Assembly (NCBI RefSeq): GCF_003991155.1
Contig: NZ_CP031293.1
Length of the DNA stretch: 64,000 nt
Strand: one strand, 5' to 3'
Source: Escherichia coli
Lineage (GTDB): Bacteria; Pseudomonadota; Gammaproteobacteria; Enterobacterales; Enterobacteriaceae
Part shown: in pieces, positions 52,352 to 52,475 of the stretch
How the letters are laid out: each line of letters begins with the position of its first letter
Numbering within the stretch: the first letter of the stretch is position 1
Made by a program: the position numbers and the translations under genes
The notes under the pieces: generated by a model
What the model saw: only the letters and a program-made list of their open reading frames with translations
What the model was told of the DNA's origin: nothing
Database searches by the model: none

Positions 52352-52429
52352 CTTTTCCTCTCCCTTCATTTTTGATGCGAAGCATAATACCTGCAAAGTT
52401 AAATAACCAACAGTCCTGCACCAGGACGT

Positions 52430-52475
52430 ATCCCTTAATTGTGCATAGTCGCAACAGCATGCACAATTAAGGGAT
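52430..52475. promoter_or_regulatory. 17-bp perfect inverted repeat in the divergent yajQ/panE promoter region; candidate operator
   Basis: ATCCCTTAATTGTGCAT-(12 nt)-ATGCACAATTAAGGGAT read directly; preceded by a smaller palindrome GTCCTG-CAC-CAGGAC (52413-52427). Confidence 0.5.

Follow-up and report, generated by a model that had tools for sequence, protein, structure and literature searches.

The perfect inverted repeat between yajQ and panE of Escherichia coli is a described RNase III hairpin and contains mirror-image promoter hexamers

The perfect inverted repeat lying between the divergent genes yajQ and panE of Escherichia coli is an RNase III hairpin that has already been described, located in a long yajQ leader, and not a new regulator site. 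On the whole evidence, the repeat very probably acts mainly as RNA, as a stem in the distal yajQ leader that is cut by RNase III with the result of a longer-lived mRNA, and in addition carries a weak sigma-70-type promoter toward yajQ and a predicted one toward panE. The points that are new here are incremental and partly inferred, and comprise the mirror-image promoters embedded in the repeat, the history of its insertion, the apparent loss of a putative ancestral panE −10 element, a strand asymmetry in Citrobacter and a stem-loop in the panE leader. The main value of the analysis is that it keeps a published RNase III target from counting as an undescribed regulator site. The locus also offers a small testable case of how a single short palindromic insertion can give two divergent genes new promoters and, at once, a site of post-transcriptional processing; the observations address no long-standing open question.

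The inverted repeat and its setting

The window analysed is a stretch of 64,000 nucleotides of E. coli (contig NZ_CP031293.1), in which yajQ and panE are separated by an intergenic region of 167 bp (52352-52518). The gene names are supported by the annotation of the identical K-12 locus (panE 443604-444515, minus strand; yajQ 444683-445174, plus strand); K-12 equals the window across the hairpin and shows two differences elsewhere in the spacer. Coordinates were converted as window x = 52519 − (NC_000913.3 position − 444515). A repeat search of the window returned arms of 18 nt, 100% complementary and 12 nt apart (Table 1). The initial annotation had reported a perfect 17-bp repeat with a 12-nt spacer; the perfection and the spacer stood, and the length was corrected, one outer base having been missed at each end. 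Its view that arms of this length exceed chance in intergenic DNA was borne out, with about 1e-7 perfect repeats of this kind expected in 167 bp by our own arithmetic, and the adjacent palindrome with 6-bp arms that it had pointed out was read as described. The arm 18-mer, searched in 64 kb with up to three mismatches, was found at the two arms only (0.05 expected). The large inverted repeat is confirmed as real and far beyond chance.

Table 1. Positions of the features at the yajQ/panE locus in window coordinates; mapped transcription start sites (TSS) and their scores are those of the available part of the Cappable-seq table.
Feature	Position	Strand	Details
yajQ	51860-52351	−	ATG at 52351
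P1, proximal yajQ promoter	52376-52389	−	−10 TATTAT 52389-52384; TSS 52376 = U00096.2 443882, score 63.7; 25-nt leader
Small palindrome GTCCTG-cac-CAGGAC	52413-52418 / 52422-52427		6-bp arms
Left arm (TATCCCTTAATTGTGCAT)	52429-52446		3' half of the stem in yajQ-sense RNA, 5' half in panE-sense RNA
P2, yajQ promoter within the palindrome	52438-52466	−	−35 TTGTGC 52466-52461, 17-nt spacer, −10 CACAAT 52443-52438; TSS 52431 = U00096.2 443827, score 43.2
Predicted mirror promoter toward panE	52439-52467	+	−35 TTGTGC 52439-52444, −10 CACAAT 52462-52467; predicted TSS ~52474 (NC_000913.3 444560)
Spacer/loop (AGTCGCAACAGC)	52447-52458		12 nt; identical in E. albertii, variable in Citrobacter
Right arm (ATGCACAATTAAGGGATA)	52459-52476		Contains 52461 = NC_000913.3 444573, the published RNase III-dependent position
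panE-leader stem-loop CACCCG-N9-CGGGTG	52488-52508	+	Abuts Shine-Dalgarno AGGAGG (52509-52514)
panE	52519-53430	+	ATG at 52519
P3, distal yajQ promoter inside panE, antisense to panE	52618-52630	−	−10 TACAAT 52630-52625; TSS 52618 = U00096.2 443640, score 35.9

When folded as RNA, the hairpin reached −29.9 kcal/mol in the yajQ sense and −27.1 kcal/mol in the panE sense, with a z-score of about −7, and none of 200 shuffles was equally stable. The stem is made of 18 perfect pairs and two more beyond a small internal loop, amounting to a continuous stem of about 20 bp (about two helical turns), which is the size that RNase III needs. A permissive Rfam scan of 51800-53000 gave two chance-level matches only, neither of them on the hairpin.

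Two perfect inverted repeats with arms of at least 18 nt and a spacer of at most 40 nt are present in the whole window, the yajQ/panE one included. The other (49413-49434 / 49461-49482; 22-nt arms, 26-nt spacer) lies within a frameshifted tetratricopeptide-repeat pseudogene (49117-49961, minus strand) that adjoins a DUF1778/GNAT toxin-antitoxin pair. About 1368 of the 5426 E. coli genomes have the accessory segment around them in full.

RNase III processing of the yajQ leader

Processing at this locus was published by Gordon, Cameron and Pfleger (mBio 2017; PMC5371410), who listed an RNase III site as '444573 intergenic panE-yajQ' on NC_000913.3, with 96 reads by RNA-seq in the rnc mutant vs 2-3 in the wild type. 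By coordinate mapping this position falls within the right arm. In the same study, purified RNase III cut transcripts of both strands in vitro (marked 'Y'), the panE-sense transcript at multiple sites; cut sites at panE-yajQ were mapped by 5' RACE, and a hairpin was stated to form on both strands. The half-life of yajQ mRNA was about 6 min in the wild type vs about 3 min in the rnc mutant, and the stability of panE mRNA was the same in both (PMC5371410). The primers of the T7 templates used there map to 52306-52326 (plus strand) and 52637-52657 (minus strand), and therefore both synthetic RNAs span the repeat. In a later review yajQ served as an example of a gene regulated positively by RNase III, through a mechanism that the review left open. 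The site had been put forward in the initial annotation as one without a described regulator, a statement overtaken by the RNase III processing published in 2017.

The transcript that would carry the stem in the cell is the distal one. Its start at 443640 was listed in the available part of the Cappable-seq table and independently by Kim et al. 2012, with a 5' UTR of 267 nt; the agreement of two independent maps means that a real transcript contains the whole hairpin, as one of three yajQ mRNA species. This start lies 100 nt inside panE (region of codons 31-37), and the hairpin follows 142-189 nt downstream of it, which places both arms on one RNA in vivo. The proposal of the initial annotation that the palindrome might be an RNA structure in a 5' UTR is upheld by this 267-nt leader and by the published cleavage.

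The course of events would then be as follows. Transcription from the distal promoter inside panE (start at 52618, minus strand) would give an mRNA whose 267-nt leader holds both arms, the arms would pair to form a stem of about 20 bp, RNase III would cut this stem, and the lifetime of the processed yajQ mRNA would be about double that of the uncut form. In yajQ-sense RNA the small palindrome forms a 6-bp stem-loop that folds independently, directly downstream of the RNase III-cut stem, and begins 4 nt after the 5' end of the P2 transcript. Left near the new 5' end, this stem-loop probably shields yajQ mRNA from 5'-end-dependent decay, as was also proposed by the authors of PMC5371410. At the DNA level, the palindrome would carry one weak sigma-70-type promoter (TTGTGC-N17-CACAAT) per strand, the yajQ-directed one firing in vivo and the panE-directed one being predicted.

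Several observations count against giving this leader too large a part. The strongest yajQ start in the available part of the Cappable-seq table, P1, lies downstream of the hairpin and P2 lies inside it, its transcript beginning within the 3' arm, and therefore a large share of yajQ mRNA never has the full stem. The RNase III substrates used in vitro were artificial long T7 transcripts, and the effect on half-life was twofold only, in a single study without hairpin mutants (PMC5371410).

The distal yajQ transcript is also antisense to the 5' end and leader of panE, and the divergent mRNAs must overlap. Intermolecular double-stranded RNA could form from this overlap and might make the locus depend on RNase III in a second way, one that the published in vitro assays do not distinguish from cutting of the hairpin.

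Transcription starts and embedded promoters

The Cappable-seq table (Ettwiller 2016) is in U00096.2 coordinates, offset by 776 from NC_000913.3, and its available part lists three substantial starts on the yajQ strand. Each of these lies 7-8 nt after a plausible −10 element, of which the TATTAT of P1 is kept across Enterobacterales. A pattern search found TTGTGC-N17-CACAAT on both strands of the palindrome (0.01 expected); its presence on the panE strand too follows from the symmetry of the palindrome, and the −35 hexamer of one strand is the complement of the −10 hexamer of the other. The hexamers agree with the sigma-70 consensus at 3/6 (TTGTGC) and 4/6 (CACAAT) positions around a 17-nt spacer, and the mapped yajQ-strand start lies exactly 7 nt downstream. 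A promoter consensus scan with a 9/12 threshold returned nothing; at 7/12 the embedded promoter falls below this threshold and came to light only through the TSS data. By symmetry only, we infer a panE-directed promoter in the palindrome. The SMRT-Cappable-seq supplement is without an entry for yajQ or panE.

These hexamers open the reading that the palindrome is primarily a DNA element, namely a symmetric bidirectional promoter that replaced a lost panE promoter in Escherichia, with RNase III cleavage a by-product of distal read-through. Besides the double occurrence of the pattern, it draws on the P2 start, whose score in the available part of the Cappable-seq table is comparable to that of P1, on the 12-nt loop, which equals the promoter spacer and is invariant between E. 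coli and E. albertii, on the Citrobacter yajQ strand, which keeps TTGTTC-N18-TACAAT, and on the destruction in E. coli and E. albertii of the putative panE −10 element described below. The hexamers are nevertheless weak and uncalled by the consensus scan, the panE-strand start is a predicted one, and a promoter pair would constrain only about 7 nt per arm, leaving a perfect symmetry of 18 bp unneeded. A primary role of this kind is quite possible, although it falls short of being probable.

It was also considered whether the large hairpin, together with the small GC stem and a U-rich tail, terminates the distal transcript and so yields a short RNA antisense to the 5' end of panE. A terminator-like match is present at 52427-52413 (minus strand; tail TGTTGGTTAT) and the distal start does lie antisense within panE, but 0.5 such matches were expected by chance against the one found, other bases break up the U tract, to a greater extent in K-12, and some E. 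coli carry variants or deletions of the small stem. Furthermore, the available parts of the Term-seq supplements hold no yajQ or panE entry, and the 443640 start was assigned to yajQ by Kim et al. 2012. Termination at this site is regarded as highly unlikely.

Distribution, conservation and origin

Of 5426 complete E. coli genomes, 5424 carry the 167-bp spacer, once each. A 71-nt core matched that locus only, the two 'places' listed for it being, we infer, the two strands of the palindrome, and was at least 99% identical in 5124 of the 5424 genomes. No copies of the palindrome were found on true plasmids or phages in the collections searched; five 'plasmid' matches belonged to records of 0.7-4.9 Mb, that is, to mislabelled chromosomes. 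Membership of a dispersed repeat family such as REP/BIME or ERIC, which had been named beforehand as the finding that would deprive the palindrome of a regulatory role, is at odds with a single locus in 5424 genomes.

For comparison between species, 80 yajQ loci from species-representative genomes were examined, together with further loci reached through PanE homologues. The repeat is identical in E. albertii, at 48 of 48 hairpin positions with the loop included, and an imperfect version occurs in the Citrobacter freundii complex (werkmanii, youngae, braakii, FP75 and related metagenome contigs). Salmonella, C. amalonaticus, Enterobacter, Leclercia, Kluyvera, Klebsiella-like genomes and all more distant genera examined lack the repeat and have a spacer that is about 45-60 bp shorter. 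Presence in Escherichia and the C. freundii complex only, with shorter spacers elsewhere, therefore points to a lineage-restricted insertion of about 60 bp. Conservation across Enterobacteriaceae, which had been suggested as a check, was thus found in part, being perfect in E. albertii and lacking in Salmonella and most of the family. From its absence in Salmonella and most enterics, it also follows that basic expression of yajQ or panE can do without the element.

Between E. coli and E. albertii, third codon positions diverge by 27% in panE and 17% in yajQ, whereas 0 of 48 hairpin positions and 0 of 42 panE-leader positions differ, all six spacer differences lying between the yajQ −10 element and the hairpin. 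This pattern indicates purifying selection on the element, loop included. It also bears on the reading of the repeat as a functionless relic, left by a small mobile or palindromic element (MITE or REP-like) or by a template-switch mutation and merely tolerated in the spacer. The lineage-restricted insertion against 'empty' sites in Salmonella, C. amalonaticus and Enterobacter would suit such a relic, as would a possible 5-bp flanking duplication (CGGCC/CAGCC) in Citrobacter and the other insertions met elsewhere in the same spacer (locus L010 and an IS3-family element, both described below). The repeat is single-copy in E. coli, however, its arms have no significant similarity to the flanking DNA, it has stayed unchanged against a silent-site divergence of 17-27%, and it has documented activity in the form of a TSS and RNase III processing, so that a functionless relic is extremely unlikely.

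As to origin, no diverged copies were found at non-orthologous Citrobacter or Escherichia sites in the collections searched. Duplication of a flank was tried and rejected, local alignments of the arm against 1.5 kb of flanking sequence on both strands being no better than those of shuffles. A target-site duplication of the MITE type was ambiguous in Citrobacter and nothing convincing was seen in E. coli.

In an Enterobacter-like metagenome-assembled genome (L010; JAFACP010000195.1), the spacer holds about 50 bp of different additional sequence (…GAGTGACTCCGTCACCGCCTTCCTGCAACTCGAATTATTTGGGGGATAGG…), located some 60-110 nt upstream of yajQ, which we take to resemble part of an ERIC/IRU element.

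The panE leader and the Citrobacter asymmetry

The panE side of the spacer holds two further conserved features. A TATAMT motif (TATACT or TATAAT), located about 10 nt upstream of the panE-leader stem-loop, is kept across Enterobacterales (loci L001-L059) and can be read as the −10 element of an ancestral panE promoter. Its position (52417-52422) is occupied by TGCACC in E. coli and E. albertii, through three transitions, and the ancestral panE promoter appears to have been lost in Escherichia. The stem-loop itself is kept across Enterobacteriaceae with compensatory changes, for example CACCTG/CAGGTG, and in Cedecea-like genomes with the arms CATTCGC/GCGAATG and CATCCGC/GTGGATG. In the alignment 90% of cells were paired and 4 of 7 pairs had changes on both sides, compared with 32-53% pairing in slid controls; Pantoea and Erwinia have a shorter CCCG-N4-CGGG that overlaps the Shine-Dalgarno sequence. 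In panE mRNA this stem-loop, which the scan of 51800-53000 assigned to no Rfam family, may stabilise the 5' end or act on translation.

In the C. freundii complex the element lies downstream of the conserved panE −10 (TATACT), and therefore the hairpin belongs there to the panE leader. The imperfect Citrobacter hairpins fold at −21 to −28 kcal/mol in the panE sense (z-scores of −3.3 to −6.2) and are much weaker in the yajQ sense, at −7 to −18 kcal/mol (z-scores of 0 to −3.7). In the panE sense 88.7% of cells were paired and seven pairs were kept by one-sided G·U changes, vs 72-77% and none in the yajQ sense, figures that come from about eight closely related sequences. A role on the panE side accounts for this asymmetry better than one on the yajQ side. 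Since G·U on one strand is A·C on the other, the asymmetry argues for selection on panE-strand RNA in Citrobacter and against a symmetric DNA operator; RNA-level rather than DNA-level selection on that strand is thereby suggested from the alignment.

It may be asked whether the main selected role of the hairpin lies in the mRNA leader of panE, a gene of the pantoate (pantothenate) pathway, in the control of stability or translation and possibly also as an RNase III site. The position of the Citrobacter panE −10, the stronger folds and G·U-kept pairs of the panE sense and the multiple in vitro cuts in the panE-sense transcript (PMC5371410) would agree with this. On the E. coli side, however, only yajQ stability was altered in the rnc mutant (PMC5371410), the upstream panE −10 is mutated in Escherichia, Kim et al. 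2012 list no panE TSS upstream of the hairpin, and the number and close relationship of the Citrobacter sequences limit what their asymmetry can carry. As the main role of the hairpin, a function in panE mRNA is rather unlikely.

A wider scheme would have the insertion of about 60 bp rewire both genes, with mirror promoters taking the place of the panE −10 in Escherichia, a panE-leader hairpin in Citrobacter, and RNase III or another reader of double-stranded RNA controlling panE and yajQ alike. This scheme is put forward tentatively and is on balance doubtful; for E. coli, cleavage of the distal yajQ leader remains the preferred account.

The small palindrome and the question of an operator

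The small palindrome is not beyond chance when taken alone (about 0.2 expected in 167 bp by our own arithmetic). It is specific to Escherichia and polymorphic within E. coli, and overlies both the mutated ancestral panE −10 position, as read above, and an NtrC half-site (TGCACCA); relative to Citrobacter it corresponds to a substitution cluster from ATAGCG to GCAGGA (yajQ sense). Spacer variants were seen in sampled E. coli at four loci (L101, NZ_LT883142.1; L100, strain 06_3235; L098, strain D10; L099, strain HS4). One variant has an IS3-family insertion just left of the small palindrome that removes the region of the proximal yajQ promoter, one a 6-nt deletion within the small palindrome, one a T-to-C change in its stem, and one a G-to-A change in the right arm of the large hairpin, which gives G·U in the yajQ sense and A·C in the panE sense. 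As two of these few variants change or delete part of the small palindrome, it is less constrained than the large one.

An in vitro genomic-SELEX peak of NtrC with 41% intensity was placed in the panE/yajQ spacer by Shimada et al. 2021 (U00096.2 443846, about 52412), at low resolution. A search for the NtrC dyad TGCACC-N5-GGTGCA with up to three mismatches gave no match in 52352-52518, where the half-site alone is present, and an NtrC enhancer site was discarded as a candidate because the full 17-bp dyad is missing.

The initial annotation had put first the binding site of a dimeric regulator. An operator for a dimeric or tetrameric DNA-binding protein acting on yajQ and/or panE has in its favour the perfect dyad symmetry of the repeat between divergent promoters, its complete conservation in E. 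albertii, spacer included, and the NtrC peak. The arm centres are 30 bp apart, however, which is atypical for a dimer, and the NtrC peak falls at the small palindrome. The Citrobacter orthologues, moreover, are degenerate as DNA and compensated by G·U on one strand, and the literature search gave no transcription factor tied to the large repeat. Spacing, symmetry of conservation and literature all failed to bear out the dimeric operator, which is very improbable.

Comparison with known systems

REP/BIME and ERIC elements resemble the yajQ/panE repeat in being intergenic palindromes able to form RNA or DNA hairpins, but the latter is single-copy, AT-rich and without relatives in 5424 E. coli genomes, plasmids and phages. 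Quasipalindromes can be converted to perfect palindromes by template-switch mutation. The two neighbouring palindromes, perfect in Escherichia and imperfect in Citrobacter, are reminiscent of the outcome of such a conversion.

Bidirectional promoters of the class attributed to Warman et al. in 2021 are said to arise from symmetry of the DNA sequence, with −10 elements that are shared. As in that class, one symmetric segment would serve divergent starts here, the mapped yajQ-strand TSS being in keeping with the embedded hexamers and the panE-strand start being predicted. The arrangement differs in that the −35 element overlaps the complement of the −10 element of the other strand and the predicted starts are 43 bp apart.

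The closest likeness of the yajQ site is with the RNase III leader hairpins of rnc, pnp, the adhE 5' UTR and phage T7 (R1.1-type), in which cutting of a stem of about 20 bp within a long 5' UTR likewise alters mRNA half-life, and the published coordinate of the panE-yajQ site (PMC5371410) falls inside this repeat. As in adhE and the T7 messages, cleavage stabilises the downstream mRNA, unlike in rnc and pnp, where it triggers decay. Unlike the other RNase III hairpins, the yajQ stem is a perfect DNA palindrome, and the transcripts of both strands are substrates.
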